From assembly GCA_965218585.1 (NCBI GenBank), contig CBDCLE010000002.1:192001-256000 (forward strand): a stretch of DNA of 64,000 nt, written 5' to 3'. Positions 6,331 to 34,804 of the stretch are shown in pieces (positions within the stretch are counted from its first letter, which is position 1; each line of letters opens with the position of its first letter). The position numbers were made by a program, and so were the translations under genes. The notes below the pieces were generated by a model. It worked only from the letters and a program-made list of their open reading frames with translations. It was not told where the DNA came from and made no database searches. This stretch comes from Terriglobia bacterium. Its GTDB lineage: Bacteria; Acidobacteriota; Terriglobia; 20CM-2-55-15.

Positions 6331-6339
6331 TAATCCCTC

Positions 6340-8885: not shown

Positions 8886-8891
8886 TAGCGA

Positions 8892-9434: not shown

Positions 9435-9452
9435 CGAAGTAAGGCAGCAGTC

Positions 9453-9650: not shown

Positions 9651-9671
9651 GACGTTTGAGGTTTATTAGAA

Positions 9672-10037: not shown

Positions 10038-10052
10038 TAAGCAGCCTGTGCC

Positions 10053-11090
10053 ATGGCTCCCGGTTCAGGAATCGACAAGCTCCACAAAATCGGCGAGCGA
10101 TTCGAAAAGGACAGAAGTTCGGTCACGGATCGCCGCTCGTTGGACGAACTCCGCACCCGATATCTCTCTCGCAAATCGGGTCTCCTGACCCTCGAGCTGC
10201 AGTCGCTTCGTTCACTCCCGAAAGAAGAGCGATCCGAATTCGGCAAGTTTGGCAACGAGTTGAAACAGAAGATCGAGGCTTCGATCACTGAACTGGAAAC
10301 TTCGATTGCTTCCCAAACCCGGGAGAAACAGATCGAGGAGGAAACCCTCGACGTCAGCCTTCCGGGTTCGGCCCCACCCATCGGACACCGACATCCGATC
10401 ACACTCGTCCGAGCCGAGATGGAGGATATCTTTGTTTCGATGGGCTACACGGTGGAGGATGGCCCGGAAGTCGAATCCACATACTACAACTTCGAAGCCC
10501 TGAACATACCTGCCGGACATCCGGCGCGCGATCCCTCCGATACCTTCTACGTCTCCGAGGAGCTGGTGCTCAGGACCCACACGTCGCCCGTGCAGGTAAG
10601 GACGATGGAGCAACAACAGCCCCCGATCCGGATCATTTGTCCGGGTCGCGTCTTTCGGCATGACGACCTGGACGCAACGCATTCACCGATGTTCCACCAG
10701 ATCGAAGGGTTGGTGGTCGACAGCGGCATCAACTTCGGGGATCTGAAAGGCACTCTGGAGCTCTTCCATCACCGGTTCTTCGGTGAAAAGACTGAGACAC
10801 GTTTTCGGCCAAGCTTCTTCCCTTTCACAGAGCCCAGTGCAGAAGTCGACATCTCCTGTCCTTTCTGCGAAGGGAATGGCTGTCGTGTATGCAAGCAGAC
10901 CGGCTGGATCGAAATGATGGGTGCAGGCATGGTGAATCCAGTCCTCTACAGCTTCGTCAACTACGATGCGGAACGTTACAGCGGGTTTGCTTTCGGGATG
11001 GGCATCGACCGCTATGCGATGATGAAATACCGCATCAGTGACATACCCTTGCTTTTCGAAAACGACTTACGTTTTCTCGAACAGTTTTAA
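10053..11090 (+). CDS. pheS: Phenylalanine--tRNA ligase alpha subunit
   Basis: 'HPARD..DTF', 'LRTHTSPVQ', 'FRPSFFPFTEPSAE', 'GFAFGMG'. Confidence 0.98.
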   Translation: MAPGSGIDKLHKIGERFEKDRSSVTDRRSLDELRTRYLSRKSGLLTLELQSLRSLPKEERSEFGKFGNELKQKIEASITELETSIASQTREKQIEEETLDVSLPGSAPPIGHRHPITLVRAEMEDIFVSMGYTVEDGPEVESTYYNFEALNIPAGHPARDPSDTFYVSEELVLRTHTSPVQVRTMEQQQPPIRIICPGRVFRHDDLDATHSPMFHQIEGLVVDSGINFGDLKGTLELFHHRFFGEKTETRFRPSFFPFTEPSAEVDISCPFCEGNGCRVCKQTGWIEMMGAGMVNPVLYSFVNYDAERYSGFAFGMGIDRYAMMKYRISDIPLLFENDLRFLEQF

Positions 11091-11098
11091 CGAACGAA

Positions 11099-13120: not shown

Positions 13121-13127
13121 AAACGTA

Positions 13128-13382
13128 ATGAAATCTGGAGCGAAAGACGCGCTCGAAAAATTCAAAGCTCTTGAGGACCACATAAGTTGGGTTCTGGACT
13201 TGCTGCGGAAGACCCGCGGAGAGAGGGAATCGGCCGAGAACGAACTCCGAGAAGCGCGTAGCCAGATCAAACTGCTCGAAAAGGAAATTAGTGGTCTACA
13301 GAAGGAACGCACTCAGGTCCGGGGCCGTGTTGAGAGCCTGATCGAGAGTATTTCCGATCTCAACGAGAAGCAAATTGTCTAA
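13128..13382 (+). CDS. zapB: Coiled-coil cell division protein, ZapB-like
   Basis: 84 aa coiled coil between pheT and zapA. Confidence 0.7.
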   Translation: MKSGAKDALEKFKALEDHISWVLDLLRKTRGERESAENELREARSQIKLLEKEISGLQKERTQVRGRVESLIESISDLNEKQIV

Positions 13383-13677
13383 GAAAGAAAGAGACGTCGT
13401 CGTCGTCGAAATCGAGGTTTACGACCAAAAATATCCGCTGCGCCTGAGCACGCCGGCCGAACGAAAAGACATCCTGCAACTGGCCGAGGAAGTGGATCAT
13501 CGAATGCGTGAGATTGCTGACCAGACCGGCACAGTCGATTCGCTCAAGGTAGCCATCCTCACGGCCCTGCACCTGGCCGAAGAAACTCGTACTAAAGATG
13601 GCGGTTCGAAAAAACTCGAATCTGCAGTCCGCACGGGCACCAAGAAGTGGATCGCCGCGATCGAGAAAGAACTCTGA
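13375..13677 (+). CDS. zapA: Cell division protein ZapA
   Basis: 'IEVYDQKY', 'LAEEVDHRMREI', 'KVAILTALHLAEE'. Confidence 0.9.
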   Translation: MSKKERDVVVVEIEVYDQKYPLRLSTPAERKDILQLAEEVDHRMREIADQTGTVDSLKVAILTALHLAEETRTKDGGSKKLESAVRTGTKKWIAAIEKEL

Positions 13678-13710
13678 CCTGCACCCGAAAGACCCTTGAA
13701 CAGATCCTTC

Positions 13711-13857
13711 AACGCAGAGGCGCAGAGACGCGAAGCTCTTAGGTCGCCCCCAGTTTCTCTTACCAGCCTCGTGGGTTTTCTACGACGTCGTTGCTAACCC
13801 GAACTAACCTTAGTGAACTGGCTGCAGGAACCTTGTCTTTCTCTGCGTCTCTGCGTC
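13711..13857. repeat. GCAGAG-unit inverted repeat, copy 2
   Basis: AACGCAGAGGCGCAGAGACGCGAAG ... CTCTGCGTCTCTGCGTC. Confidence 0.7.
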
Positions 13858-13894
13858 TGATCCGTCTTCCCTCTTGGTTAATCTCACGGGTTGT

Positions 13895-13924
13895 TTGACG
13901 TGGTTTCAGACATTCACCTACAAT
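13895..13924 (+). promoter_or_regulatory. Sigma70 promoter of 6S RNA
   Basis: TTGACG-18 nt-TACAAT. Confidence 0.65.
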
Positions 13925-13929
13925 CAGGG

Positions 13930-14112
13930 TGGCCCTGCAAAGTACGTGTTGGTACCAACATTATTTGACCTTAGTCTTATTTGAAGGGGTCCGATTCTCG
14001 CGTGGTGTGCGAGTCATCCCTACGGGTTAATGGTTCCCTGAAGCGCGGATAGGACACCCACCCTGTTTTCGACAGGTTCAAATAAGCGGTGCCACACGGC
14101 CAAGCGGGGTTT
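13930..14112 (+). ncRNA. ssrS: 6S RNA
   Basis: Canonical position downstream of zapA; ~180 nt; ends pair (CCCTGC..CGTGTTGGTACC / GGTGCCACACG..GCGGGG), inner stem ATTTGACCT/AGGTTCAAAT. Confidence 0.8.
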
Positions 14113-14121
14113 TTTATTTTT

Positions 14122-14898
14122 ATGAAGATCCTCTTTATCGGTGACATCGTGGCTAGGGCAGGGAGGGAGGCCCTCCGCGATCATCTCGAGTCAATCAAGC
14201 GGGAGTACTCGATCGACTTCACGATATCTAACTGCGAAAACGCGGCCGCCGGTTTTGGTATCACCCCGAAGATCGCCGATGAATTGCTGGGCTGGGGGGT
14301 GGACGTACTGACCTCAGGCAACCACATCTGGGACAAAAAAGAGATCCTACCGTATTTGGATTCACAACCCCGGATTCTTCGACCCATCAACTATCCACCC
14401 CCGAATCCAGGACATGGTGTGGTTGTCGTCGAGACAGCGGGTGGGGAACCTGTTGCAGTGGTAAACGTCCAGGGCCTGTCGTTTATGCCATCGATTGACG
14501 ATCCGTTTCGGGCGATCGAAGAAGAGTTGACCCGAATTCCCGAACACGTCCGGGTGGTCGTGGTCGACATGCACGCGGAAGCAACCGCGGAAAAGGTGGC
14601 CATGGGTTGGTATCTGGATGGAAAAGTGTCGGCTGTCCTGGGAAGCCACACCCATATCCCGACTGCAGATGAGAGGATCCTTCCCGAAGGTACGGCCTAT
14701 CAGACCGACGTCGGCATGACCGGGCCCTTCGATTCTGTCATCGGAATGAGCCGGGAATCGGTAATGGAACGGTTTCATAGGCAGGTCCCGGTCCGGTTTG
14801 AACCGGCAACCGATGACGCCCAGGTAAATGCTGCCGTCATCGATGTGGATTCAGGAACGGGCAAAGCCCTCTCAATCCAACGGGTCCGCCGCGGCTAG
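14122..14898 (+). CDS. ymdB: YmdB-like (TIGR00282) metallophosphoesterase
   Basis: 'MKILFIGDIV', 'NCENAAAGFG', 'SGNHIWD', 'DMHAEATAEK', 'GSHTHIPTAD'. Confidence 0.92.
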   Translation: MKILFIGDIVARAGREALRDHLESIKREYSIDFTISNCENAAAGFGITPKIADELLGWGVDVLTSGNHIWDKKEILPYLDSQPRILRPINYPPPNPGHGVVVVETAGGEPVAVVNVQGLSFMPSIDDPFRAIEEELTRIPEHVRVVVVDMHAEATAEKVAMGWYLDGKVSAVLGSHTHIPTADERILPEGTAYQTDVGMTGPFDSVIGMSRESVMERFHRQVPVRFEPATDDAQVNAAVIDVDSGTGKALSIQRVRRG

Positions 14899-14925
14899 AT
14901 ACGATAGGATGATGCAGAAATGCTT

Positions 14926-15009
14926 AACCGAGAGACGCAAAGGACGCTGAGGACGCAGAAGCAGACAGAAAATAGATTTCGGTCTCTGCGTCTGTGCGCC
15001 TCTCTGTTG
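14926..15009. repeat. GCAGAG-unit inverted repeat, copy 3
   Basis: AACCGAGAGACGCAAAGGACGCTGAGGACGCAGAAG ... CTCTGCGTCTGTGCGCCTCTCTGTTG. Confidence 0.7.
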
Positions 15010-15037
15010 GATCCGGCCTTCTAAGTTTCCAAGGCTT

Positions 15038-16405
15038 ATGTTCGAAAACTTATCTGACAGGCTCCAGAAGGTCTTCAAGAACCTTCGTGGCGAAGGCAAA
15101 CTCACCGCCGAGCACATTGAGGAATCTCTCAAGGAAATACGGATGGCTCTGCTCGAGGCGGACACCAATTTCAAGGTCGTCCGCCAATTCACCGAGCGCG
15201 TCAAGGAGAAGGCACTCGGGCAGGAAGTCCTTCAAAGCCTCACCCCTGGACAGCAGGTCATCAAGGTTGTTCGGGACGAAATGGTGGAGATGCTGGGTGG
15301 AGAGACGGCCAGGGTAGGGTTCGCGTCCCAGCCACCCACCGTCATTCTGCTGGTCGGTCTCCAGGGATCGGGCAAGACAACCACCAGCGGAAAACTCGCC
15401 CGGTGGCTTCAGAAACAGGGTCACCGCCCCATGTTGGTGTCGGTAGACGTTTACCGGCCGGCGGCCCGCGACCAGCTTAAAGTTATCGCGGGTGAGATCA
15501 AGGCACCTGTATGGGAAGGCGCCGACGGTGATGGCCCGCTCAAGCTGTGCCAGCAGGCCCTACAGGAAGCCAAAGACACCGCGCACGACGTACTGATCAT
15601 CGACACGGCCGGGCGGCTCCATATCGACGAAGAGTTGATGGGGGAGTTGACCCAGATCAAAGACTCCCTGAGTCCCCAGGAAATCCTGTTCGTGGCCGAT
15701 GCAATGCTTGGTCAGGACGCAGTTCGAAGCGCTGAAGAGTTCCACGGGCAACTGGGTTTTACAGGTTTCATCCTGACAAAACTGGACGGCGATGCCCGCG
15801 GCGGTGCGGCCTTATCGATCAATTCGGTCACAGGCAAACCGATCAAGTTCGTAGGTACGGATGAAAAATACGAAGCGTTGGAACAGTTTCATCCGGACAG
15901 GCTCGTGTCCCGAATCCTGGGAATGGGCGACATCCTCTCGCTGATCGAGAAGGCCGAAGAGACGATCGATAAGGAAAAGGCCCTCGAACTTCAGAAGAAG
16001 GTCCTGAAAGACACTTTCACGCTGGAGGATTTTCGCGACCAGCTGAGGCAAATTCGAAAAATGGGTTCCCTGGAACAGATCCTGGGGATGCTACCCAGCA
16101 TCGGGCCGTTCAAGGACATGGCCAACGTTCAGGTGGATGAGAAGGAACTGGGGCGGACCGAAGCCATCATCGACTCGATGACGCCTAGGGAACGCCGTAA
16201 CCACCAGATAATTAACGGGAGCCGGCGGAAGCGGATTGCGAGGGGAAGTGGGACCTCGGTCCAGCAGGTGAACCAGCTTCTGAAGCAATACATCCAGACC
16301 CGCAAGATGATGAAGAGCATGACGGCAGACGGAACCAAGAAAGGAAAAAAGGGGAAAAAAGGCAGAAGAATGAGAGGTTTCCGGATGCCGCAGATGCCGA
16401 TGTAG
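15038..16405 (+). CDS. ffh: Signal recognition particle protein
   Basis: 'GLQGSGKTTT', 'DTAGRL', 'TKLDGDARGGAALS', M domain 'SRILGMGD'. Confidence 0.98.
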   Translation: MFENLSDRLQKVFKNLRGEGKLTAEHIEESLKEIRMALLEADTNFKVVRQFTERVKEKALGQEVLQSLTPGQQVIKVVRDEMVEMLGGETARVGFASQPPTVILLVGLQGSGKTTTSGKLARWLQKQGHRPMLVSVDVYRPAARDQLKVIAGEIKAPVWEGADGDGPLKLCQQALQEAKDTAHDVLIIDTAGRLHIDEELMGELTQIKDSLSPQEILFVADAMLGQDAVRSAEEFHGQLGFTGFILTKLDGDARGGAALSINSVTGKPIKFVGTDEKYEALEQFHPDRLVSRILGMGDILSLIEKAEETIDKEKALELQKKVLKDTFTLEDFRDQLRQIRKMGSLEQILGMLPSIGPFKDMANVQVDEKELGRTEAIIDSMTPRERRNHQIINGSRRKRIARGSGTSVQQVNQLLKQYIQTRKMMKSMTADGTKKGKKGKKGRRMRGFRMPQMPM

Positions 16406-16528
16406 GCGCCTGCCTCGCGGTTGGGCGCCCCCTCGGCGCTCAGCCCTCGGCCAGATCCGAATCGGGACGACAGTCCCACCGGCTGAACTGATAGCCGAGG
16501 TCTGAGGGGTCGGGGCCGACCAATTCCT

Positions 16529-16578
16529 TATTGACGCCGTTTTCGCTATTGACGCCGTTTTCGCTGGAAAACTATAAT
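16529..16578 (+). promoter_or_regulatory. rpsP operon promoter with a tandem 18-bp duplication containing the -35
   Basis: TATTGACGCCGTTTTCGC x2 (16529-16564); second TTGACG-18 nt-TATAAT (16573-16578). Confidence 0.7.
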
Positions 16579-23773: not shown

Positions 23774-25053
23774 TGCCTCTTGACGGAGCAAAGCGGATCG
23801 TCGTCCGAGAGGGCCGCCTGCTCGACCCGGAACGAGGCGTGGACCAGACCGGCGATATCCTGATCGAAGACGGGAAGATCCAGGCCGTCGGCGAGGTGGA
23901 GGTTTCCGACGCCGAAACTCTCAATGCGAAAGGCCTGGTCGTAGCTCCCGGCTTTTTCGACATCCACGTCCACCTGCGAGAGCCGGGCACCGAAGAGGCC
24001 GAAACGATTCGTACTGGAGGAGAGGCGGCCGCGGCCGGCGGTTTTACGGCCGTGGCAGCGATGCCCAACACGAGACCACCTATTGACAATGCTTCGCTTG
24101 CGCAGTTCGTCGTCTCAGAAGCACGCCGCCATTCACCGGCACGCGTGTTTCCGATCGGAGCGATTACGAAGGGGCAGGCCGGTGAAACACTGGCCGAGAT
24201 CGGAGAGATGGTGGCCGAAGGTATTGTCGGCATTTCCGATGACGGCAAACCCGTCATGAACGCACGCCTCTTCCGGCGTGCCATGGAGTACTCGAAGCTG
24301 TTCGACCTGCCCGTTATCCAGCATTGCGAGGACCTGGATCTTTCGTCCGGCGGCGTGATGCACGAGGGGGCAGTTTCGACCCGAATGGGGCTGAAGGGGA
24401 TTCCCGCCGCCGCAGAGGATTCCATCGTTGCGCGCGACCTGACGCTTACTGAGCTAACAGGTGCCAAATACCACGTGGCCCACCTGAGCACGGCCGGCGC
24501 CGTGGAAATGGTCCGACGCGCGAAAGCCCAGGGTCTTCCTGTGACGGCCGAAGCCGCGCCCCATCACTTTGCTCTGACTGAAGATGCCGTGGAAAACTAC
24601 AACACGAACGCCAAGATGAAACCTCCGCTACGCTCCGAGGAAGACGTGAAGGCGGTGATCGAAGGCCTTCGTGAGGGGACGATAGACACCATTGCCAGCG
24701 ATCACGCGCCTCATCATGTAAACCTAAAGATGCTGGAATTCGACCGCGCGCCGTTCGGCATAACGGGTCTGGAAACAGCTGTGGGACTGGCGATGACTCG
24801 GCTAGAACTTTCAATGGACCGTCTTGTCGAGTTATTCTCGACAAACGCTCAACGGATCATGCGGATCGAACCTTGGGGGCTCTTCGCAGGATCTATTGCG
24901 GACGTGACAATCCTCGACCCGGCACGGGAGTGGACGTTCGACGTCGGAGAATCACGGTCATTAAGTCGGAACAGCCCCTTCGATGGCTGGACCTTCAAGG
25001 GAAAAGCCGTAGCGACGATCGTAGGTGGCAGTGTTGTTTATGAAGATCTTTAG
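23773..25053 (+). CDS. pyrC: Dihydroorotase
   Basis: 'DIHVHLREPG', 'MPNT', 'KMKPPLR', 'SDHAPH'. Confidence 0.96.
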   Translation: MPLDGAKRIVVREGRLLDPERGVDQTGDILIEDGKIQAVGEVEVSDAETLNAKGLVVAPGFFDIHVHLREPGTEEAETIRTGGEAAAAGGFTAVAAMPNTRPPIDNASLAQFVVSEARRHSPARVFPIGAITKGQAGETLAEIGEMVAEGIVGISDDGKPVMNARLFRRAMEYSKLFDLPVIQHCEDLDLSSGGVMHEGAVSTRMGLKGIPAAAEDSIVARDLTLTELTGAKYHVAHLSTAGAVEMVRRAKAQGLPVTAEAAPHHFALTEDAVENYNTNAKMKPPLRSEEDVKAVIEGLREGTIDTIASDHAPHHVNLKMLEFDRAPFGITGLETAVGLAMTRLELSMDRLVELFSTNAQRIMRIEPWGLFAGSIADVTILDPAREWTFDVGESRSLSRNSPFDGWTFKGKAVATIVGGSVVYEDL

Positions 25054-26338
25054 CCAAGGGTTCATTGGACTCGGCGCGTTGTCGCTCCTCGGCGTCTCCA
25101 CAGCGATGGCCCAGACTCCGGACGAACTCGTCGAACAGATCCAGGAAAACGACCGATACCAGGAGGCTCTCGAGTATATCGACACAGACTACCCCCGCTA
25201 CGTCGAGGAGTTGATAGAACTGACCGAGATTCCCGCACCCCCGTTCATGGAATCCGAACGCGCCGCTGTTTACCTGGAAAAGCTTGCCGAACTGGGACTG
25301 GAATCGGTGGGAATGGACGCTGAAGGCAATGTCATGGGCGTCCGTGCTGGCGGGGACGGACCTTTGATCGCTGTAGCGGCCCACCTCGACACTGTCTTTC
25401 CCGAGGGAACTGACGTGCGTGTTCGGCGTGAAGGCACACGGTTATCGGCACCAGGGGTGGGAGACGACACGGCGGGTTTGGTTCTGTTGCTTGCCGTGAT
25501 CCGCGCGATGGACGCCGCAGGGATCCAGACCTCTGGAGACATTCTCTTTGTGGGCGACGTCGGCGAGGAAGGGCCGGGGGACCTCCGGGGCATGAAATAC
25601 CTGTTCGGCGAAGGCCCGTATAGGGATCGGATCGAAGGGTTTGTCTCGGTCGAAGGCGGCCGCCAGATGGACATCACCAACGCCGCCCTCGGGAGCAAAC
25701 GATACCGCGTGACCTTCCGGGGACCCGGAGGACACAGCTACAACGCGTTCGGCCTCGTCAGCCCTTCGTTTGCCATGGGAAATGCGATCAGGAAGCTTTC
25801 GAGCCTCGAAGTTCCCGACGATCCCAAAACAACGTTCAACGTGGGGGTCATCGGAGGTGGAACCTCGGTCAACTCAATCCCCTTTGAATCGTGGATGGAA
25901 GTCGATATCCGGTCTGAAGAGCGTGAACGGCTCGAAAATACGGCGGAGATGTTCCTCGATCTGATGTACCAGGCGGTAGATGAAGAAAACGAGGCGCGGT
26001 CCACCGGGCAGGGCGAGATTGAACTTGAAATCGAGGTCATCGGAGATCGCCCTTCGGGAGAGATATCAATAAACACGCCACTCGTCGAAAGAACTGCGGC
26101 GTCCTTTCGAGCCTTCGGGATCGAGCCTACATACAGCCGCTCCAGCACCGATTCTAATATTCCGATCAGCCTTGGAATTCCGGCCGTCACGATCGACCGA
26201 GGCGGCATGGGAGGCCGCAGCCATTCACTGGATGAATGGGTGGACGTGGAAAAACCGGGAACCGTGGAAGGAATACAGGTCGTCCTGACGACGATTCTCG
26301 CCATTAGTGGCCTGGAAGAAGACCGCACCACGGACTGA
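25040..26338 (+). CDS. Secreted M20/M25/M40 family metallopeptidase
   Basis: Signal peptide, 'AAHLDTVFP', 'GDDTAG', 'GEEG.GDLRG', 'GGHS', 'STDSN', 'HSLDEW'. Confidence 0.9.
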   Translation: MKIFSQGFIGLGALSLLGVSTAMAQTPDELVEQIQENDRYQEALEYIDTDYPRYVEELIELTEIPAPPFMESERAAVYLEKLAELGLESVGMDAEGNVMGVRAGGDGPLIAVAAHLDTVFPEGTDVRVRREGTRLSAPGVGDDTAGLVLLLAVIRAMDAAGIQTSGDILFVGDVGEEGPGDLRGMKYLFGEGPYRDRIEGFVSVEGGRQMDITNAALGSKRYRVTFRGPGGHSYNAFGLVSPSFAMGNAIRKLSSLEVPDDPKTTFNVGVIGGGTSVNSIPFESWMEVDIRSEERERLENTAEMFLDLMYQAVDEENEARSTGQGEIELEIEVIGDRPSGEISINTPLVERTAASFRAFGIEPTYSRSSTDSNIPISLGIPAVTIDRGGMGGRSHSLDEWVDVEKPGTVEGIQVVLTTILAISGLEEDRTTD

Positions 26339-26431
26339 AACCTATAACCTTCAGCCAGTCAGATCCGCGTATCTCCTCTGGAACGATCGTTGCTTCACCT
26401 TCGACGGGTTCAACGGAAGCCAACCTCACTT

Positions 26432-26462
26432 ATATTGTAAGTAATGTTATGATTTACAATAT
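26432..26462 (+). promoter_or_regulatory. mazEF-like promoter/operator (leaderless)
   Basis: ATATTGTAA/TTACAATAT inverted repeat enclosing extended -10 TGtTATGAT; ATG at 26461. Confidence 0.7.
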
Positions 26463-26700
26463 GAAAACTATTTCGATTACGGTGGACGAGGATACGCTCG
26501 CCCGACTCGACCGGCTTGCCGGCAAGGGCTCAAAGCAGCGATCGAACCGTTCCAGCATGGTTCGCGCCGCGATGCGCGAATATGTGTCCCGCATGGAACG
26601 TCAGGTCGAAGAAGAACGGGAACGTGAAGTTTTCCGGCAACAGCGAACCCAACTCGAGAAGGAAGCAATCGCACTGGTTCGGGAGCAGGCGACGCCGTGA
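26461..26700 (+). CDS. CopG/RHH antitoxin (MazE/NdoAI-like)
   Basis: 'MKTISITVDEDTLARLD...NRSSMVRAAMREY'; GTGA overlap with the toxin. Confidence 0.85.
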   Translation: MKTISITVDEDTLARLDRLAGKGSKQRSNRSSMVRAAMREYVSRMERQVEEEREREVFRQQRTQLEKEAIALVREQATP

Positions 26701-27029
26701 ATCGCGGGGAAATCTATAAGTCGCGGGAGAAAGTCCCGGAACGTGGCCATAAACCGGGATTCTATGTCGTGGTTTCGCGCGATTTTGTGGCCACCAATGA
26801 CGACATTTCAACCGTGGTCTGTGCACCCGTCTATCGGCAGATTCTGGGAATCCGGAGTGAGGTGATTCTCGGTCCGGATGATGGCCTTGTTCAGGAGAGT
26901 TCTCTCCGCTGCGACTTCCTCTCGTTGATGTTTAAACGAAAACTGGCTCGGAAGGTCGGATCGCTCTCGGAGGAAAAGCTCAACCAGCTCGATCACGCTC
27001 TCGGGTATGCGCTGGGGCTGGGAACGTAA
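26697..27029 (+). CDS. mazF: PemK/MazF-family toxin
   Basis: 'MNRGEIY', 'VVVSRD', 'VVCAPV', 'VGSLSEEKLNQLDHALGYALGL'. Confidence 0.85.
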   Translation: MNRGEIYKSREKVPERGHKPGFYVVVSRDFVATNDDISTVVCAPVYRQILGIRSEVILGPDDGLVQESSLRCDFLSLMFKRKLARKVGSLSEEKLNQLDHALGYALGLGT

Positions 27030-27171
27030 AGCGACAGGTAAGGCTTGAATTTGGGATGTGACTCGTGGATGTCACAATCCGCTTGTCCGTTTCCGTGAGT
27101 TCTTCACCCCAACTTCTAGTCGCTACGCCGCATTTGAGGTGTCTGGCAGCATTTGATCGGAAATCGATAGT

Positions 27172-27209
27172 TCTCAACGTCCGGGAAGATGATTTCTCAG
27201 GATCTGAGA
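27172..27209 (-). repeat. 38-bp bulged palindromic site A
   Basis: Minus strand TCTCAGATCCTGAGAAATCATCTTCCCGGACGTTGAGA; homologs at 30514 and 32274. Confidence 0.8.
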
Positions 27210-27226
27210 ATCATTTTCAAGCTCAT

Positions 27227-27285
27227 CTAGGGCACCGGCACACGCTCCATCAGTTCTTCAAACCAGTTGAACAAGAACGACGTTG
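27227..27285 (-). pseudogene. 3' remnant of a Ser/Thr kinase-TolB propeller-type gene
   Basis: Decodes as NVVL(+4 nt)NWFEELMERVPVP*, resembling the C-terminus of acidobacterial kinase-propeller proteins (recognised from memory). Confidence 0.65.
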
Positions 27286-27387
27286 GCTTGCTCGCAGCCT
27301 TTCGTTGATCAAGGTGCGCACCGTGCTCGCTTTCACGCGGAGAAAGTCGGCAGCATCGTGAACGGTAAAGAGGGGTCTGGTTAGCAT
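27250..27387 (-). pseudogene. Truncated excisionase-like (HTH_17) DNA-binding protein
   Basis: 45 aa ORF below the track cutoff: MLTRPLFTVHDAADFLRVKASTVRTLINERLRAS..., running into the kinase remnant. Confidence 0.65.
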
Positions 27388-27628
27388 CGCGACATGCCGG
27401 CGCGGTTTTTGCGCTGTTTCTGGGGTTGCTTATGCTTATATATACGTTCTTATCTGTCACTGCTTCGTTGTACCTGTATATCAGTCAGCTGGGGGCGATT
27501 GTCTGGCACGGCGCTGGAGTCATGAATGGCTATCAAAACCTTGGTCCGCTCTTATAATCGCTTGTGGCGCACGTACCGCCGCTAAAACTGTCCACTGAAT
27601 CCGCTAAACACTAAAAAGGCCCATTGCC

Positions 27629-30463
27629 ATGAATCCCAAAAACAATTTGTCCTGCCTGGCGCTGGTATTGTCGACTCTTCTGCTCCCATCACTGGTACTG
27701 GCACAGACCAGGGTGGGGGACTTACCGATTGATGAAGTGGCCACCCGCAGCATCCGCGAAGCAACCACTTCCGAGGACTTCCTCAGCCCCTGGGTGGAGG
27801 TGTTGCCGGAACACGCTACCGTGCCCAGCCCCCGTGATGTGCTGGGATATACGGTGGGTACTCCCGGTGAGCTAACCCAGGTGGAAGACATCTATCGCTA
27901 CTTCGAAGCCCTGGCGGCGGCCTCTGACCGGGTGGAAATCTTTCAGCTTGGCCAATCCTTCGAGCGACGGGACATGCTGGTGGTGGCCATCGCCGAGCCC
28001 GAGCATCTGGCCAACGTGGAGACCTACAAGAACTACCTGCGGCAACTGGCGGACCCAAGGCAGACTGATCGCGCCACAGCCGAGACGATCATCGCCGAGG
28101 CCATGCCCATCTACTGGATGACCGCCGGGCTACACTCCCCGGAACTGGGCCCGCCGGAGATGGTCATGGAGTTAGCCTACCGCCTAGCTGTGGAAAACCG
28201 GGAGCCCTTTGTCGATATTCGCGACAAGGTCATCACCCTGATCACTCCAGTGTTCGACGTGGACGGACGCGCTCGCCAGGTGGACTGGTACAAACGCAAC
28301 ACCAAGGGCCATACCGATTACTTCGATATGCCGCCGCGCAGCGTGCCCTTCTGGGGGCATTACACTTATCACGACAACAACCGCGACGGCATTTCCATTA
28401 CCCAGCCCATTACCAAGAACTTCGTGCGCGGCGTGTACGAATGGATACCCACTGTGTCCCTGGACCTGCACGAGTCCGTGCCCCTTTTATATGTGTCAGG
28501 TGGCACCGGCCCCTACAACGAAGGCATCAGTCCTATCACTATCGGTGAATGGCAACTGCTGGCCAGCTACGAGGTCTCTCGCCTTACCGGCCTGGGCCTG
28601 GAAGGCGTGTGGACCTGGGGGTTTTATACCGGCTGGTATCCCGGTTACATGCTGTGGACTACCAATAACCACAACGGCATGGGCCGCTTCTACGAGACCT
28701 TCGGCAACAACAGCGCCGACACCATGGAGCGGGACCTGGCCAACTCCAACTACGCCGGCGAACTTATCACCGAACGGACCTGGTACCGGGCGGCGCCCCC
28801 GCCGCGCAAACTCACCTGGTCCATGCGCAACAACACCAACTACATGCAATCGGGGGTGATCGCCTCTCTGGAGATGGTGGCTCAAAACGGCTCCTTGTTT
28901 CTGCACAACTTCTACCAAAAAGGAGTGGACGCCCTGGAGCAGGGTACCAAAGAGCCGCCCTACGCCTTTGTCATTCCTCAGGAACAGACCGACCCCGATT
29001 CGACCAACTTCATGGTAGGTGCCTTGAGCCGTCATGCCATTGAATTGCAGCGCTCCACCGAGGCCCGCTCCTACGGCGATATTGACGTAGCCGCGGGCGA
29101 TCTGCTGGTGAAACTCAATCAGCCTTACGGACCGTTGGCCAGGACCCTGCTGGAAACGCAGGAGTTCCCTGCCGATGTCCAGGTGCCACCTTATGACGAC
29201 GTCTCCTGGACATTCGGCTTGGTCTATGGCGTCGACGTCGAGGCGATTGACACTGAAAACGTGTTGCAGCACGACAGCACGCCTTTTGGCGCCGGTGACG
29301 CTTTTGACGACGAGCTTCGTTTTCTCCCCAGCACTCAGTTACCAGACTCGGGCGGCTACTGGATCGTCCCCCACCGCGGTCAGCGGGAATTGGGGCCCGC
29401 GCGCTTCGCTATGGGCGATAACGAAGTGCATGTGGCCGAAGCGCCTTTTACGGTAGGCGGCCAAGAGTATCCGGCCGGCTCACTCATAATTGACATTGAC
29501 GAGGTGGACCGAGACGAAATCGCCGCGGCGTTAGAGGGCACCCGCCTGGTAGTCATCGGCGCCGATAACCGGCCCGAGGTAACCACCCATGAACTGGATC
29601 TGCCGCGCCTGGGCGTCTACCAGTCCTGGACCTCCACCCAGAACCCTGGCTGGGTGCGTTACAGCCTGGATGAGGCAAATATACCCTACACGCTGTTCTC
29701 CAAGGATCGGGCCCGGCGCGGCAGCTTACTGCGGGAATTCGACGTGATCCTGGTACCGCACATGAGCGGCGGCACCAGCCTGGCCACCATCGTCGGCGGC
29801 ATCGACCCCAAGTGGTCGCCCCTACCTTACAGCAACACCTCCGAGTCACCGAACCACGGCCATATCCTCAGTTCCGAGGACATAACCGGTGGCCTCGGCT
29901 TCGAAGGCATGGCGGCCTTCGAGGAATTTGTCCGGGACGGCGGCACCCTCATCACCTTGGGCTCCGCCGGGGTCATGGCCACCGACTCCGGCATCCTCCG
30001 TGGGATCATCAAGCGGGACGCCGGCAGGATGAATACCCCCGGCTCCATCATGACCGCCAAGGTTACCGACCGCAGCTCACCTCTGGTCTACGGCTACGAC
30101 GAAATCACTCACGTCATGCGCGGCAACATGCCCGTATTCTCGGTGCCCGATTACGACCGCGAGTACGCGCCGCTACAGTTCGGCACCAAGCACTGGGATG
30201 AGGACGAGTCCGAAGATGCCGCCGAACTGCGCAACGAGGATGACGAAGACAGCCAATCGCCACCGACGCCACCGCTGGTCTTATCTGGCGGCATCGTCCT
30301 CGGCGCCGACGTCATCGATGGTGAACCGGCGATTGTGAGCAAGCCGCTGGATGATGGGCATGTCGTGCTATTCAGTTGGAACCCATTGCATCGGCATGTG
30401 AATCTACACGATCATGGGTTTGTGTATAACGCGATTCTGAATTGGAATGATTTGAGGGATTAG
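27629..30463 (+). CDS. Secreted M14-family zinc carboxypeptidase-like protein with C-terminal GATase-like domain
   Basis: Signal peptide; 'GLHSPE' (HxxE), 'DNNRD', 'DLHES'. Confidence 0.88.
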   Translation: MNPKNNLSCLALVLSTLLLPSLVLAQTRVGDLPIDEVATRSIREATTSEDFLSPWVEVLPEHATVPSPRDVLGYTVGTPGELTQVEDIYRYFEALAAASDRVEIFQLGQSFERRDMLVVAIAEPEHLANVETYKNYLRQLADPRQTDRATAETIIAEAMPIYWMTAGLHSPELGPPEMVMELAYRLAVENREPFVDIRDKVITLITPVFDVDGRARQVDWYKRNTKGHTDYFDMPPRSVPFWGHYTYHDNNRDGISITQPITKNFVRGVYEWIPTVSLDLHESVPLLYVSGGTGPYNEGISPITIGEWQLLASYEVSRLTGLGLEGVWTWGFYTGWYPGYMLWTTNNHNGMGRFYETFGNNSADTMERDLANSNYAGELITERTWYRAAPPPRKLTWSMRNNTNYMQSGVIASLEMVAQNGSLFLHNFYQKGVDALEQGTKEPPYAFVIPQEQTDPDSTNFMVGALSRHAIELQRSTEARSYGDIDVAAGDLLVKLNQPYGPLARTLLETQEFPADVQVPPYDDVSWTFGLVYGVDVEAIDTENVLQHDSTPFGAGDAFDDELRFLPSTQLPDSGGYWIVPHRGQRELGPARFAMGDNEVHVAEAPFTVGGQEYPAGSLIIDIDEVDRDEIAAALEGTRLVVIGADNRPEVTTHELDLPRLGVYQSWTSTQNPGWVRYSLDEANIPYTLFSKDRARRGSLLREFDVILVPHMSGGTSLATIVGGIDPKWSPLPYSNTSESPNHGHILSSEDITGGLGFEGMAAFEEFVRDGGTLITLGSAGVMATDSGILRGIIKRDAGRMNTPGSIMTAKVTDRSSPLVYGYDEITHVMRGNMPVFSVPDYDREYAPLQFGTKHWDEDESEDAAELRNEDDEDSQSPPTPPLVLSGGIVLGADVIDGEPAIVSKPLDDGHVVLFSWNPLHRHVNLHDHGFVYNAILNWNDLRD

Positions 30464-30513
30464 CGCGATTGTGCCATCTGGGCGCCGCATTTTGCTCTAC
30501 TGGTGAGTTCGAT

Positions 30514-30551
30514 TCTCAACGTCCGACAAGATGATTTCTCAGGACTTGACC
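30514..30551 (-). repeat. 38-bp bulged palindromic site B
   Basis: Minus strand GGTCAAGTCCTGAGAAATCATCTTGTCGGACGTTGAGA; same orientation as A. Confidence 0.8.
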
Positions 30552-30558
30552 TCGAAAA

Positions 30559-30610
30559 TCAGGGCACTGGAACCGTTCCTTCAGTTCTTCAAAACCGCTT
30601 CAGACGACCT
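30559..30610 (-). pseudogene. Second decayed kinase C-terminal remnant
   Basis: gtcgtctgaagcggttttgaagaactgaaggaacggttccagtgccctga reads as a degenerate VVLNWFEELKERVPVP*. Confidence 0.6.
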
Positions 30611-30630
30611 GGCTCCGGGATGGTGGCGCA

Positions 30631-32154
30631 TCACTGACTGGATGTCGCTGCGGTTTCCGAGGGTGTGCGCTTCATCAGGGACAGAGCAGCGCGGCCGATC
30701 AACGTTGCCAGTCTGCGTTTCGTACCCTTTACGGCACTGTCCGCTGAAAGTCCGTAGCGCTTGTAGCGTGTCAGCAGCCCTCGGCAAATCACGAAATGAG
30801 TCAGGAACTTCCTCCAGTCGGCAAAAAGCCCGAAGCGCTTCGATCGCTTGAGCACTGCCGACAGGCTGTAAAAGCTCCGCCAGGCGGCCTCCACTTTGCC
30901 CAGCAACTGCTCTGCGGTGAGATTGGGGTGGTGATAGAGGATGCGTGGGTGGTCGGGATCCAACCAGTAATCGTAATCTTGTTTGATGGGTTTGAGCGCC
31001 ATCTTGCCACGCCGCATCTGGTGGAAGTCAACTGTGCCCGGAAGCGGAGTCATCGGAATGAACTGCGCCAGTGTGATACCGGAGTCCCGCGCAAACTGAA
31101 TCGTGTAGTCGAGCGACGCTTCGGTGTCAGTCTCGATTCCAAAAATAAACGCGCCCATGATGTAGTCAAAACCATCGCGCCGAATCAGGTTGAGCTTGTC
31201 CATCAGGTCTTGCCCTGTGGAGTTGAACGTCTTGTTGGTCGCTTTGAGCCCCTCGGCCGTCACGGTTTCGATCCCGATCAATGCTCCCTTAACGTTACCT
31301 CGTCTCATGGCCGCCATGTATTCGGGGTCGTCGGCTACGTCCATCGTGATCTGCGTGAAGAAGTTCATGCCCTTGGGAATTTCCGTTGCAAGGCGGTCGA
31401 GCAAGTCGAAGCGCTGCTCGAGACCGGCCTCGAGGGTGCGTCGGTCCTCTGCAGTGCGGGCGTTGGCAATGTCCTCTCGACTGTAGGGATAGAAGTTGTC
31501 GTCGGCGAACATCACGAACCGGAAACCGGCGTGGTAAAGCTCTTGAACTTCCTGGATGATCCCGTCGTTCGTACGTAGGCGCGGCACCTGACCGTCCTGC
31601 ACCCATACAGAGCAGAACGAGCACTGCTTTGGACATCCCCTCACAGTCTGAATGGAGGCGACCAGGTATCGGTCGAGTGACATGAGATCCCATCGTGCCG
31701 GAGTGAACGAGTCCGGCGCCACTCGACCCCCGCGATACTGCTTTTCGAGTTTGCCCGTGGCGTAGTCGTTGAGCACCTGTGACCAGATTTCCTCGGCGTC
31801 GCCTGTCACAACCGCATTCCCGTGCAGCAAAGTCTCCTCGGGGAAAATCGACGAATGCGGGCCACCAAAGACGACCGTGGCTCCCCGCTCGCGAACCCTC
31901 TTTGCCAGCGCATAGCCATGGATGGCGTTAAAAGTGTGAATACTGATCCCGACCAGGTCTCCGGCCCGCACCTCCTCGATAGGGAACGGTTCGACCGCCT
32001 GATCCGCAAGCCTGAGTCGCTCGACGCAGCCGTTCTGGGGAGTGACAGCTGCCATAACAGGGAGGGCCCTTGGCGTAATGAACGAAAAATTGATGCGTTC
32101 CGCTGCTGGTGCCGGGTTGGCAAGGAAGATCTGAAATTCCTTCAGGCTCACCAT
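30631..32154 (-). CDS. Cobalamin-binding radical SAM protein
   Basis: B12-binding domain 'VVFGGPHSSIFPEE', 'RGCPKQCSFC' CxxxCxxC, 'FADDNF'; likely start MVSLKEF at 32154. Confidence 0.92.
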   Translation of the reverse strand: MVSLKEFQIFLANPAPAAERINFSFITPRALPVMAAVTPQNGCVERLRLADQAVEPFPIEEVRAGDLVGISIHTFNAIHGYALAKRVRERGATVVFGGPHSSIFPEETLLHGNAVVTGDAEEIWSQVLNDYATGKLEKQYRGGRVAPDSFTPARWDLMSLDRYLVASIQTVRGCPKQCSFCSVWVQDGQVPRLRTNDGIIQEVQELYHAGFRFVMFADDNFYPYSREDIANARTAEDRRTLEAGLEQRFDLLDRLATEIPKGMNFFTQITMDVADDPEYMAAMRRGNVKGALIGIETVTAEGLKATNKTFNSTGQDLMDKLNLIRRDGFDYIMGAFIFGIETDTEASLDYTIQFARDSGITLAQFIPMTPLPGTVDFHQMRRGKMALKPIKQDYDYWLDPDHPRILYHHPNLTAEQLLGKVEAAWRSFYSLSAVLKRSKRFGLFADWRKFLTHFVICRGLLTRYKRYGLSADSAVKGTKRRLATLIGRAALSLMKRTPSETAATSSQ

Positions 32155-32273
32155 GAAGGTTTCGTTAGAGCGGTTCCGAGTCGGGTGTCGGTTCCATCGT
32201 TTAGAGTGCCTCGTGTCGAACAGCAAAAAACTCGGAAAAGAATACTAGCGGAGGAGGCTAGAAGCAATCACTG

Positions 32274-32311
32274 TCTCAAGTCCTGACAAACGAACTTCCC
32301 GGACGCTGAGA
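32274..32311 (+). repeat. 38-bp bulged palindromic site C (inverted relative to A and B)
   Basis: Plus strand TCTCAAGTCCTGACAAACGAACTTCCCGGACGCTGAGA. Confidence 0.7.
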
Positions 32312-32371
32312 TTTCTTGGCCAACGGGAGATGTCTGAACCTGCTACGCAGCTCGTAGCTCAGACTTCTTCT

Positions 32372-34804
32372 CTAACCGATAACTAGGTTAAGAATCTTGT
32401 TCTTAACGTAGATCTTCTTGCGGATTTCTTTGCCGTCCAGGTGCCGGCTCACGACGGAGTCTTCCATTGCGGCATTGAGGACGACGGATTCTTCAGAATC
32501 CATGTCGACGGTAACCGTGCCGCGCATCTTGCCATTGATCTGAACGGCCACTGTAACAGTGTCGAACTTCGTATAGGCGTCATCCCAGCCGGGCCACGTC
32601 TGGTTGAAGATCGACGGCTCGTGTCCCGTTCGCTCCCAGAGTTCATCGGCAAAATGGGGCGCAAAGGGAGACATCAGAATCAGGAATGTCTCAACGGTCT
32701 CCCGGTCGGGAGCTTCCCCAATCGCCTGAACTTCATTCAAGAACTCCATCATCGCGCTGACTACGGTATTCAGACGAAATCCTTCGAGCCGTTCGGTGAC
32801 CTTCTTTACGAGGAGATGCCGCTGAGTCAGGATCGGGCGGGACCCAGACTCGGGCCATGACCCGTTGTGATCGAGAACCCAGACCCAGGCGCGTTTCAGG
32901 AAACGATGGACGCCGTCGATACCGCGGTCGTTCCATTCGGCATCCATTTCAGGAGGACCAACAAAAAGTTCGTAAAGTCGTAGTGAGTCGCAGCCATGAC
33001 TGCGGACCAGGTCGTCCGGGTTGACGACGTTCCCTTTGGACTTGGACATCTTCTCGACGCGTCCACTCTTGCCCTTGCGCGTGATCATGCCCTGGTTCAA
33101 GAGACGGACGAACGGTTCTTCGAACTCGACGACGCCGATGTCGTAGAGAAACATCGTGAAGAAACGGGCGTAAAGGAGGTGGAGAATGGCATGTTCGACA
33201 CCTCCCACGTACATGTCTACCGGCAGCCATGGCTTTCCGGTTTCGTTCAGCAGATGGTCGTCGTCACGGGGTGAGGTATAGCGCAGGAAGTACCAGGAGG
33301 ATCCGGCCCACTGGGGCATAACATCGGTTTCACGCCGCCCCTCGGCACCGCACTTGGGACACGGCACCCGGATCCAGTCTTCGATTGCGGCCAGCGGAGA
33401 CTCCCCCGTGCCGGTCGGCTCATAGCGCTCGACCTCCGGCAGTCGAACGGGAAGATCCGCTTCGTCCACTGGGACCTGCCCACACTTTTTGCAATGGATG
33501 ATCGGAATAGGTTCTCCCCAATACCGTTGGCGCGAGAACACCCAGTCGCGCAGCCGGTATTGAATAGTTCCCTTCCCCAGTTGCTTGTCTTCCAGAAACG
33601 CAGTGATTGCCTTCCGGCCTTCGGCCGCATCCATGCCGGTGAAATCGTCTGACTGGATCATCTTGCCGTCGCCGGTGTATGCCGCTTCGGCTATGCCCTG
33701 CTCGGACGAAATCACTTCCCGGATTTCTAGGTCGAACTTCTTTGCGAACTCGTAGTCGCGTTCGTCATGAGCCGGAACAGCCATGATTGCGCCGGTTCCG
33801 TAACCCATGAGGACGTAGTCGGCGACCCAGATCGGTATCTTTTCGCCGTTCACCGGGTTGATCGCATAAGACCCGGTGAAGAGTCCGGTCTTGTCTTTAA
33901 CTACTGCAGTTCTGTCGATCTCTGAGGCGTTTCGTGCCGCTTCGACATAGGCTTCAACGCCAGACATGCGATTCGTCTCTGTCAGAGTCGGAACCAGAGG
34001 GTGTTCCGGTGCCAACACCATGTAGGTCGCACCAAAGAGCGTGTCAGGTCGGGTTGTAAAAATGACCAGGGGATGTTCGTTGCCGTCGGGATCGAGAGCG
34101 GTAAACGTCGTTTCCGCACCTTCGGATCGTCCGATCCAGTTCCGCTGCATCGTCTTGACCTTCTCCGGCCACTCCAGAGGTTCCAGGCCATCGAGCAGGC
34201 GGTCGGCATACTTCGTGATCCGAAGCATCCACTGCTTCATGTCTTTCTTCCCAACCAGAGTGCCACAGCGTTCGCACTCACCGCCGACGACTTCCTCGTT
34301 CGCCAGGACTGTCTTACAACTGGGGCACCAGTTGATCGGCATCACGTCCTGGTAGGCCAGGCCTTCCCTGAACATCTTGACGAAGATCCATTGAGTCCAC
34401 TTGTAGTAGTCCGGATCGGTTGTGTCGATCTCACGAGTCCAGTCGTACATCGGACTCATTTCGATGAGCTGACGCCTGAACGTTGCGATGTTCTTCCGGG
34501 TGTTGATTGCGGGGTGAATGCCGTTTTTTATAGCATCGTTTTCCGCGGGCAGACCGAAGGCATCCCATCCCATCGGATGGAGGACGTTATGACCTTGGAG
34601 CGCTTTGTAGCGGGACCACGCATCGGGAAGGACATAGCTGCGCCAATGACCCACATGGAGGCCGGCTCCGGACGTGTAGGGAAACATGTCCAGACAGTAG
34701 TACTTGGGGCGCGGATCGTCGTTCCGTGCTTCGTAAAGGTTGGCCTCCGCCCAGTACTTTCGCCATTTCTCTTCGATTTCTTTAAAGTCGTATTCAGGGG
34801 ACAT
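32372..34804 (-). CDS. leuS: Leucine--tRNA ligase
   Basis: 'MFPYTSGAGLHVGH', 'GYGTGAIMAVPAHDERD', 'KMSKSKGN'. Confidence 0.98.
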   Translation of the reverse strand: MSPEYDFKEIEEKWRKYWAEANLYEARNDDPRPKYYCLDMFPYTSGAGLHVGHWRSYVLPDAWSRYKALQGHNVLHPMGWDAFGLPAENDAIKNGIHPAINTRKNIATFRRQLIEMSPMYDWTREIDTTDPDYYKWTQWIFVKMFREGLAYQDVMPINWCPSCKTVLANEEVVGGECERCGTLVGKKDMKQWMLRITKYADRLLDGLEPLEWPEKVKTMQRNWIGRSEGAETTFTALDPDGNEHPLVIFTTRPDTLFGATYMVLAPEHPLVPTLTETNRMSGVEAYVEAARNASEIDRTAVVKDKTGLFTGSYAINPVNGEKIPIWVADYVLMGYGTGAIMAVPAHDERDYEFAKKFDLEIREVISSEQGIAEAAYTGDGKMIQSDDFTGMDAAEGRKAITAFLEDKQLGKGTIQYRLRDWVFSRQRYWGEPIPIIHCKKCGQVPVDEADLPVRLPEVERYEPTGTGESPLAAIEDWIRVPCPKCGAEGRRETDVMPQWAGSSWYFLRYTSPRDDDHLLNETGKPWLPVDMYVGGVEHAILHLLYARFFTMFLYDIGVVEFEEPFVRLLNQGMITRKGKSGRVEKMSKSKGNVVNPDDLVRSHGCDSLRLYELFVGPPEMDAEWNDRGIDGVHRFLKRAWVWVLDHNGSWPESGSRPILTQRHLLVKKVTERLEGFRLNTVVSAMMEFLNEVQAIGEAPDRETVETFLILMSPFAPHFADELWERTGHEPSIFNQTWPGWDDAYTKFDTVTVAVQINGKMRGTVTVDMDSEESVVLNAAMEDSVVSRHLDGKEIRKKIYVKNKILNLVIG

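Follow-up and report, generated by a model that had tools for sequence, protein, structure and literature searches.

In Acinetobacter, accessory modules, toxin-antitoxin modules among them, are bound by short sites, the dif sites, that consist of two arms and a 6-bp spacer; the recombinase is encoded elsewhere, the junction sites are hybrids of two parents, and certain insertion sequences (IS) insert beside them (PMC13141974; PMC10132070). The first report also states that dif modules need identical spacers (PMC13141974). The present study concerns a stretch of 64,000 nucleotides from a Terriglobia bacterium of the Acidobacteriota (assembly GCA_965218585.1, contig CBDCLE010000002.1, positions 192,001 to 256,000), hereafter the window. 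An initial annotation of the window had singled out three 38-base palindromes, A, B and C, as a local trio marking a candidate gene-capture hotspot, and had read them as bulged hairpins of the kind used by integron integrases (attC sites) and HUH transposases. Here, I show that the palindromes belong to a large, genus-wide family of sites which form arrays with diverse cargo genes, that cassettes of these arrays are shared between species, and that sites at shared cassettes are hybrids. The local three-site picture was too narrow, and its core idea survives in a broader form, in which the palindromes would be the joints of an undescribed cassette system whose enzyme is encoded elsewhere. More specifically, and with a slight lean in favour of this reading, A, B and C are taken as putative double-stranded recombination sites of about 38 bp belonging to an integron-independent system.

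The window's genome (G000; 4.55 Mb in 26 contigs, 57% G+C) was compared with those of four sister species (G001 to G004), five species of the genus in all; the closest named relatives by leuS are uncultured Solibacteraceae/Terriglobia bins. A profile hidden Markov model (HMM) of the motif, built on 73 fuzzy matches, was used to scan G000 with a main cut-off of E<1e-4, and counts across genomes relied on a 22-mer of the site's right half with at most 2 mismatches, the reversed pattern being the control. Genes were labelled by Pfam and NCBIfam searches, and the tallies of gene strands around sites come from crude open reading frame (ORF) calls. Positions 1-38 are numbered along the site, T1 and T2 denote its two subtypes, and position statistics and linkage refer to 60 ungapped T1 copies.

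A site family with two subtypes

All three palindromes of the initial annotation are present where, and on the strands on which, it had placed them:

27172..27209, minus strand: copy A, a T1-type site (pattern match and profile scan)
30514..30551, minus strand: copy B, a T1-type site (profile scan and pairwise comparison)
32274..32311, plus strand: copy C, a T2-type site with the same arms and another centre, inverted relative to A and B and hence 5' of the radical SAM unit

The consensus they were said to share fits A, which lies within 3 mismatches of it, better than B (4 mismatches) and C (5), which are more diverged than it suggests; pairwise, the three differ at 6-9 of 38 positions. At up to 3 mismatches A is the only match in the window, and none of 100 shuffles matched. 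That the window holds no further copy also stands, for the genome scan reveals no fourth one even at E<=10.

Outside the window the trio is far from alone. The scan of G000 returned 122 matches at E<=10, of which 84 (64 T1 and 20 T2) pass the main cut-off, the window contributing A, B and C only, and two sister species hold more than 100 copies each. The 22-mer counts across G000-G004 are 59, 149, 106, 9 and 2; in 36 other related genomes the 22-mer occurs 0-2 times each, and the reversed control gave 0 everywhere. A species-level genome collection in which the genus itself appears not to be covered, and which therefore says little on the spread of the motif, yielded 0 matches to a 22-base pattern and 1, outside the genus in OZ252023.1, to the 20-base core. 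An Rfam scan of window positions 26000-33000 at E<=1 gave no match.

The T1 copies, A and B included, have the centre AAATCATCTT, and the T2 copies, to which C belongs, carry the same arms around AAACGAyCTT or AAACGACATT. In its layout the site consists of imperfect inverted arms of 16 bp (positions 1-16 and 23-38) around an asymmetric 6-bp spacer (positions 17-22), which reads ATCATC in T1 and ACGATC or ACGACA in T2. The arms carry a conserved one-base offset: the left one has an additional T, and the complement of the right one an additional C. Inverted arms and an asymmetric spacer, together with an exchange interval consistent with the spacer (see below), are what is found in core sites of the lox/FRT type.

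The family is closely tied to one kind of gene. T1 often follows, at a fixed distance of 30 or 38-41 nt (12 cases), a coding tag ending in ..WFEELKERVPVP and a stop codon, and the intact owners of this tag encode a Ser/Thr kinase with a PD40/TolB-like beta-propeller either fused to it or coming after it. Of about 20 tags in G000 only 3 close a long open frame, the others being relics, and for this reason the founding kinase/PD40 family seems to be decaying in this genome. A tandem of site-flanked kinase/PD40 genes in G000 (contig C2:546000-553585) looks broken, one gene being divided into separate ORFs for kinase (503 aa) and PD40 (369 aa) and the next losing its frame before the C-terminal tag. 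T2 is always inverted relative to neighbouring T1 copies. Reading on from a reversed T2, one meets a conserved box that begins TAGTAT at a distance of exactly 26 nt and, about 95 nt on, the kinase start MESGTKLGHYEI, which is intact in some places and a relic in others. Behind certain T1 copies, at about 20 nt, comes a reversed T2 and then the leader, and in other cases the reversed T2 is partly deleted. The initial annotation had conceded that its proposal would fall if the motif were simply the common 3' untranslated region of kinase paralogs. Half of this holds: kinase/PD40 paralogs have sites like A and B as their standard 3' flank, with a relic of the C-terminus ahead of both A and B, and sites like C as their standard 5' flank.

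Co-oriented runs of sites occur in G000 on contigs C2 (94.8-111.7 kb), C4 (186.6-202.4 kb), C24 (149-161 kb), C9 (66.6-80.4 kb), C1 (139.9-142.4 kb) and others. These arrays reach about 17 kb and hold, between successive T1 sites, 1-3 genes that have no common theme: by Pfam, the cargo includes arylsulfotransferase, amidohydrolases, cupin, DUF3024, DUF6152, cytochrome c, an outer-membrane barrel, esterase, an ankyrin protein, methyltransferases, glyoxalase, a metallo-beta-lactamase fold and a molybdopterin oxidoreductase. T1 lies on the strand of the upstream gene in 39/53 intergenic copies (12 copies fall 'inside' a called ORF), and in 14/19 cases for T2 the neighbouring gene on the 5' side points away from the site. 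The orientation of the sites is constant within arrays despite reversed cargo, as with the M14 peptidase and mazEF genes of the window and a 423-aa amidohydrolase in the C4 array.

Transposase genes of the IS256 family, in multiple copies, are also among the array contents. A 432-aa transposase of this family, with several copies (contigs C1, C2, C9 and C24), lies inside the kinase leader downstream of T1/T2, at positions that vary within the leader, and one copy is 98% identical to a G003 copy, far above core-gene identity. Two adjoining G000 segments match G001 at more than 30 places each with 88-90% identity (G001 contigs C2, C5, C6, C9, C10 and others); these look like an insertion sequence of very high copy number in G001 that has one or few copies in G000.

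Hybrid sites at cassettes shared between species

Pieces of the C4 and C2 arrays that hold one gene are found again in G001/G003, at scattered places and with 84-95% identity, while the core genes pyrBC-M20 and leuS are 78-81% identical between species, and the neighbours of a given cassette differ from one species to another. The cassettes and their identity to G001/G003 are:

amidohydrolase (554 aa) cassette, 94%
DUF3024 cassette, 92-95%
PCMT cassette, 92-93%
cyclase cassette, 90%
glyoxalase cassette, 90%
CDO-like cassette, 89%
MBL-fold cassette, 85-88%
arylsulfotransferase cassette, 84%

Homology ends at or within T1 for the DUF3024, PCMT, cyclase (3' end only) and arylsulfotransferase cassettes. 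Downstream of DUF3024, positions 1-24 of the site are common to three species, including a rarer TCTCAGG start, and positions 25-38 differ among the three, as does the next cassette. The reverse applies upstream of the same gene, where the right end of the site, with a rare GTTGACA, is common to the three species, and the left halves and the upstream neighbours differ. Upstream of PCMT, the right halves of the G001 and G003 sites are alike and have a rare A at position 31, the left halves being different; in G001, where the DUF3024 and PCMT cassettes adjoin, their joint site combines a left half from DUF3024 with a right half from PCMT. Lastly, a rare left half downstream of the cyclase is common to G000 and G003, with differing right halves and neighbours. 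Because these marker variants are rare in G000 (about 2-15% of copies), their sharing by chance is unlikely.

At the three compared cassettes, T1 is thus a chimera, with a left half that goes with the upstream cassette and a right half that goes with the downstream cassette. Hybrid halves at three cassettes point to an exchange in the conserved centre of the site, which, judging from these alignments, would take place after position 7 and before position 25, and not at the G|TT of attC. Linkage among T1 copies (n=60) is tight from position -6 to 14, and none of these positions is linked to 25-41 at p<=0.01; the best-conserved run, positions 15-24, lies between the two linkage blocks. In most copies T1 homology stops abruptly where the site ends on its 3' side (+0 to +2).

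The bulged fold of the initial annotation (an outer stem of 6 bp, a bulged G and 4 bp more) is predicted for B and C but not for A as single-stranded DNA (ssDNA). As ssDNA the three copies fold with -3.5 to -4.5 kcal/mol (z +0.17 to -1.17), no better than shuffles, and as RNA they are not more stable than shuffles (z -0.29 to -1.45). In well-kept copies elsewhere the predicted hairpin is longer and has a loop of six bases (-13.4 kcal/mol as RNA, z -2.4 to -3.05). The inner stem pairs 14-25 and 13-26 are kept in 39/60 and 36/60 T1 copies, respectively, and such poor retention of stem pairs, combined with weak folds, is expected of shuffled halves and not of a conserved hairpin. Given the central exchange point and the weak single-strand fold, a double-stranded site of the lox/dif type fits better than a bulged hairpin of the attC/HUH type, and the hairpin mechanism is probably wrong. 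The cross-species junctions do support the motif as an exchange joint between gene cassettes.

A scenario consistent with these data may be outlined. Cutting at the spacer would be done by a site-specific recombinase whose gene lies elsewhere and which is probably of the tyrosine type; the DNA between two direct T1 sites would be excised as a circle, and the circle could re-insert at another T1, each array site thereby becoming a hybrid of two parents. By analogy with other systems, in which spacers have to agree, T2, with the same arms and another spacer, would not recombine with T1; as the central sequence of C differs from that of B, the inversion between B and C envisaged earlier would not be expected. 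The site family may have grown from Ser/Thr-kinase/PD40 genes, with T1 after the stop codon and T2 inverted upstream of a promoter-like leader. Many cassettes would then be kinase shells in which the body has been replaced by a foreign gene, and the kinase leader may drive the gene so captured.

The locus between the M20 peptidase gene and leuS

In the window, the sites lie in an insert between two core genes, with the following features:

25025..26338, plus strand: M20 peptidase, core gene and conserved left flank (Pfam; synteny)
26337..32371, unstranded: insert relative to G001, G003 and G004, between the M20 stop and the leuS stop (blastn of syntenic regions and junction sequences)
26449-26700, plus strand: mazE-like gene, RHH (Pfam RHH_1, 5.8e-6)
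26697-27029, plus strand: mazF-like gene, PemK (Pfam PemK_toxin, 8e-9)
27227..27268, minus strand: C-terminal tag of a kinase/PD40 gene, left as a relic (..NWFEELMERVPVP and a stop codon) at 18 nt upstream of A
27629..30463, plus strand: M14-family peptidase of 944 aa, which forms the cargo of the B-A interval and is opposite in strand to both sites (Pfam Peptidase_M14, 2.7e-12)
30559..30593, minus strand: another such relic tag (FEELKERFQCP and a stop codon), at 7 nt upstream of B; its reading frame is not that of the radical SAM gene
30631..32154, minus strand: B12-binding radical SAM gene (Pfam); the listed ORF reaches 32226
32165..32197, minus strand: degenerate relic of the kinase start-codon region, where intact members begin MESGTKLGHYEI
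32225..32247, minus strand: promoter/leader-like box that begins TAGTAT, common to the kinase genes of the family, 26 nt downstream of inverted C
32372..34804, minus strand: leuS, core gene and conserved right flank (synteny, blastn)

Read along the minus strand, leuS is followed by inverted C with the leader and the relic kinase start, the radical SAM gene, a relic C-terminus with B, the reversed M14 gene, a further relic C-terminus with A, the reversed mazEF pair and M20. The radical SAM gene likely starts at the ATG at 32154 (MVSLKEFQ..). The relic of the kinase start is 13/30 identical without gaps and is placed mainly by its position after the conserved leader, in which the TAGTAT box would act as promoter. 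With B and a relic tag on one side, and C, the box and a relic start on the other, the radical SAM gene sits inside the shell of a former kinase gene. The insert closes with the mazEF pair (26449..27029), which has no site beyond it and is encoded on the other strand from the sites.

The labels MazEF, M14 peptidase and radical SAM of the initial annotation were confirmed by Pfam, as was that of the M20 peptidase. For the M14-family protein, the carboxypeptidase match is confined to the N-terminal part (residues 88-223), and no NCBIfam family matched. The supposed Xis-like relic (27227-27460, minus strand) has no Pfam match and ends in the kinase/PD40 C-terminal tag; it is therefore a relic of a kinase and not of an Xis.

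As to the proposed gene-capture hotspot between core genes, the interval is indeed variable among sister species, but its edges are not both at sites. From the M20 stop to the leuS stop there are 78-150 bp in G001, G003 and G004, with no motif between them, and 6,035 bp in G000. At the same spot G002 has a different insert of 13.2 kb, without T1 or T2 (G002:C41:4666000-4685500, 3305-16537), with genes for an H-NOX sensor, histidine kinases and response regulators (EAL, HD, HDOD), two DDE transposases/IS elements and a PIN toxin gene. When the G000 insert is compared with the sister genomes, only A and B with their respective relics find matches, in dozens of places each; the cargo genes are unmatched there at the DNA level, save a weak match of the radical SAM gene in G004.

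Candidate enzymes, rival explanations and known systems

Linkage searches in G000 and in the sister species agree with the earlier view that no recombinase is encoded beside the sites. G000 encodes two recombinases of the Xer type (C10:73422-74216 and C3:185304-186149) and three broken or unrelated ones, namely a phage-type integrase interrupted by an IS, a fragment and an integrase of 470 aa (C15); all of them are remote from the arrays. When G000 was scanned for XerD arms (<=1 mismatch), 5 places matched, but a dif-like partner arm was missing from each; one falls inside a T1 copy, in a register unfit for the exchange interval. In G001, a two-gene element (contig C1:91500-95500, 1352-3860) encodes a 293-aa tyrosine recombinase followed by a 394-aa IS91-family (Y2) transposase, and is present in at least 6 identical copies. 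One end of this IS91-linked element is found 0-30 nt from a T1-like site in 4/6 loci, in either orientation, and about 200 nt from one in a fifth; none was found in the sixth. An apparent relic of the element's end follows the T1 at C24:160947 in G000, and the element may target the sites. Its tyrosine recombinase was rejected as the general enzyme, for it has no close homologue in G000, and G002 has 20 copies of its own version but only 9 sites. Nor do T1 and T2 behave as terminal inverted repeats of an IS: the IS256- and IS91-family/integrase elements adjoin them at varying distances with ends of their own, and the units between sites carry unrelated cargo.

A number of observations weigh against a cassette system with a dedicated enzyme. 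No recombinase could be tied to the sites by position or by copy number, and where three divergent arrays of G001 and G003 begin, nothing but IS elements and cargo is present at their heads. The contigs of four sequencing runs, which break at A and B, showed no excision product; joints that go back (30551 to 27227, and 32311 to 30516) were considered as circles and rejected, their extra letters pointing to other copies of relic plus T1 or to T1-T2 doublets. The right edge of the window's insert is 60 nt beyond C, and the left edge, beside mazE, has no site. A 96.8%-identical amidohydrolase duplicate has a breakpoint away from sites, the 5' edge of the 554-aa amidohydrolase cassette is 121 nt after a T2, and that of the cyclase segment has its nearest T1 at a distance of more than 100 nt, G003 lacking a T1 at this place. 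Several breakpoints thus fall outside the sites, and processes other than site exchange also shape these regions. The argument from hybrid sites is built on three cassettes and on variants that 5-15% of copies carry, the junction of the arylsulfotransferase being uninformative as its right halves differ between species; right-half positions are poorly linked to each other too, so that part of the right-half variation may be mutation. Moreover, the kinase link may leave room for a role in gene transcripts.

Among the alternatives, the one least at odds with the data, albeit unlikely, is that T1 and T2 are passive dispersed repeats, namely the ends of an expanded kinase/PD40 family, and that shuffling was brought about by homologous recombination, interspecies transfer and IS with no dedicated recombinase. 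Besides the missing enzyme linkage and the outlying breakpoints, it draws on T1 and T2 being the normal 3' and 5' flanks of kinase genes, on relic kinase ends, which stretch the shared homology to about 100 nt at many copies, and on the wealth of IS256, IS91-like and other transposase genes in the arrays. Yet the DUF3024, PCMT and cyclase junctions share only the 38-bp site, with the exchange in the same central interval each time, and a kinase relic is absent from the 25-175 nt beside those sites, except upstream of the G001 copy at the DUF3024 5' junction. An imperfect repeat of 38 bp is a poor substrate for RecA, which counts against passive repeats, as does linkage that is tight over 20 nt on the left and gone across 10 nt. 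I consider it improbable that the sites act in RNA or transcription, T1 as a stabilising or processing hairpin at the 3' end and T2 as an operator or leader of kinase genes, both copied with gene duplicates and recombining only incidentally. The strand bias of both subtypes relative to adjoining genes, the constant spacing of T1 from the tag and of T2 from the TAGTAT box and kinase start, and the good RNA folds of well-kept copies would all suit such a role; but the sites keep their orientation around reversed genes too, only 60-65% of copies retain the inner stem pairs, with the loop as the most conserved part, no T run follows the hairpin, Rfam has no match, and the hybrid sites would be left unexplained.

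Repetitive extragenic palindromes (REP), or their doublets (REPIN), spread by a REP-associated tyrosine transposase (RAYT), would likewise be short imperfect palindromes, extragenic and in many copies, with IS elements adjoining, as is known for REPs; some six doublets of T1 and reversed T2 with a spacer of about 20 nt can be read from the scan table and flanks, most copies being single. Two RAYT-like (IS200-like Y1) genes do exist in G000 (contigs C10:115435-116193 and C3:160188-160871), a short tandem or palindromic repeat lying about 500 nt from the former. Their proteins, however, reach 72 and 56 bits against the cut-off of 80 for the family NF047646, the motif does not flank them, REP partners of their own were not found, and RAYT-like genes occur in all five species whatever the motif count (2 to 149). 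REPs move alone, which leaves shared cassettes with hybrid joints unexplained, and a RAYT origin is very improbable. Least credible of all is that the sites are unusually short attC sites of clusters of attC sites lacking integron integrases (CALINs), served by an integron integrase in trans. The statement that the sites lack attC ends was only roughly right, since each end matches the usual RYYYAAC/GTTRRRY boxes (R'' and R') at 6/7 positions; co-oriented arrays, diverse small cargo and a toxin-antitoxin pair are in keeping with a CALIN, and G001, G002 and G003 each encode one full integron integrase (440-458 bits against the TIGR02249 cut-off of 265). But T1 and T2 are absent from the 20-40 kb scanned on either side of these three intI genes, and no repeat array was seen within 15 kb on the expected cassette side, a range covered without a proper attC search. 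The best G000 protein scores 83.7 bits; G000, with its 84 copies, and G004 have no intI over the cut-off, and G002 has one but 9 copies. The GTT is kept in 47-56 of 60 T1 copies, but the C of AAC at the left box in only 15; a site of 38 nt is below the attC range of 57-141 bp and folds weakly as ssDNA. Above all, the exchange maps before position 25 and not to the G|TT at 32/33, positions 25-38 travelling with the downstream cassette at three cassettes.

If the sites do belong to a lox/dif-like cassette system, they would bear on a group whose gain and shuffling of accessory genes are poorly known, although Acidobacteriota are among the most abundant soil bacteria. A bolder version, which I put forward tentatively as possible rather than probable, would see here a third bacterial cassette platform, unlike integrons and dif modules: genomes of one soil acidobacterial genus would each hold about 100 lox-like sites of 38 bp, at which a recombinase with its gene elsewhere, possibly the Xer pair of the host, would excise, exchange and stack single genes between species, and new cassettes would be born when a foreign gene replaces a kinase/PD40 body and inherits its promoter-bearing T2 and its T1. 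A limited search of the full-text literature, which did not cover subscription journals and supplements, found no description of such sites in Acidobacteria. If the proposal is true, the strategy of short-site cassettes arose more than once, in this instance with a distinct site architecture, no local integrase and a visible route of cassette birth, the kinase shell giving promoter and sites; a search for the sites would then be a direct route to mobile genes in metagenomes and would point to a recombinase-site pair. Were the sites passive repeats, they would still explain why assemblies break at these places and why kinase relics flank unrelated genes.

With REP, bacterial interspersed mosaic elements (BIME) and REPIN, the sites have in common their size, the imperfect palindrome, the extragenic location, inverted doublets and nearby IS; they differ in that no link to a RAYT was found, in forming oriented arrays in accessory DNA and in serving as joints between shuffled genes. 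The likeness to loxP and FRT, which rests on architecture and the mapped exchange interval only, consists of inverted arms and a short asymmetric spacer that sets the direction, so that direct repeats would give excision; here the arms have, in addition, the conserved one-base offset. The pdif sites of Acinetobacter (XerC/XerD) have in common with T1 two arms and a 6-bp spacer, accessory modules that include toxin-antitoxin pairs, hybrid junction sites and nearby IS. They measure 28 bp (11+6+11), resemble chromosomal dif, alternate in orientation (C and D modules) and are found on plasmids, whereas T1 measures 38 bp and occurs as direct repeats in chromosomal arrays, with arms that, by eye, are unlike the dif arms of Table 1 in PMC13141974. 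The T2 subtype at array heads and the link to a kinase gene family are further traits of the present sites that set them apart from dif modules.

Integron arrays and CALINs are similar in their co-oriented, mostly single-gene and unrelated cassettes, in the toxin-antitoxin unit, in the imperfect palindrome that ends each cassette, in a different site at the array head beside a promoter-like region and in cassettes common to several species. The arrays described here differ from them in that no integrase is linked, the site is shorter, sequence and not only structure is conserved, the exchange point is central and not in the right-hand box, the single-strand fold is weak and many cassettes have a promoter-like leader of their own. 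To sum up, apart from the partial match of the ends to the attC boxes, the defining features of integrons and dif modules that were tested are not found in these sites, nor is a RAYT gene flanked by the motif, as REP/RAYT would require, yet in function it is integron arrays and the dif modules of Acinetobacter that they most resemble.

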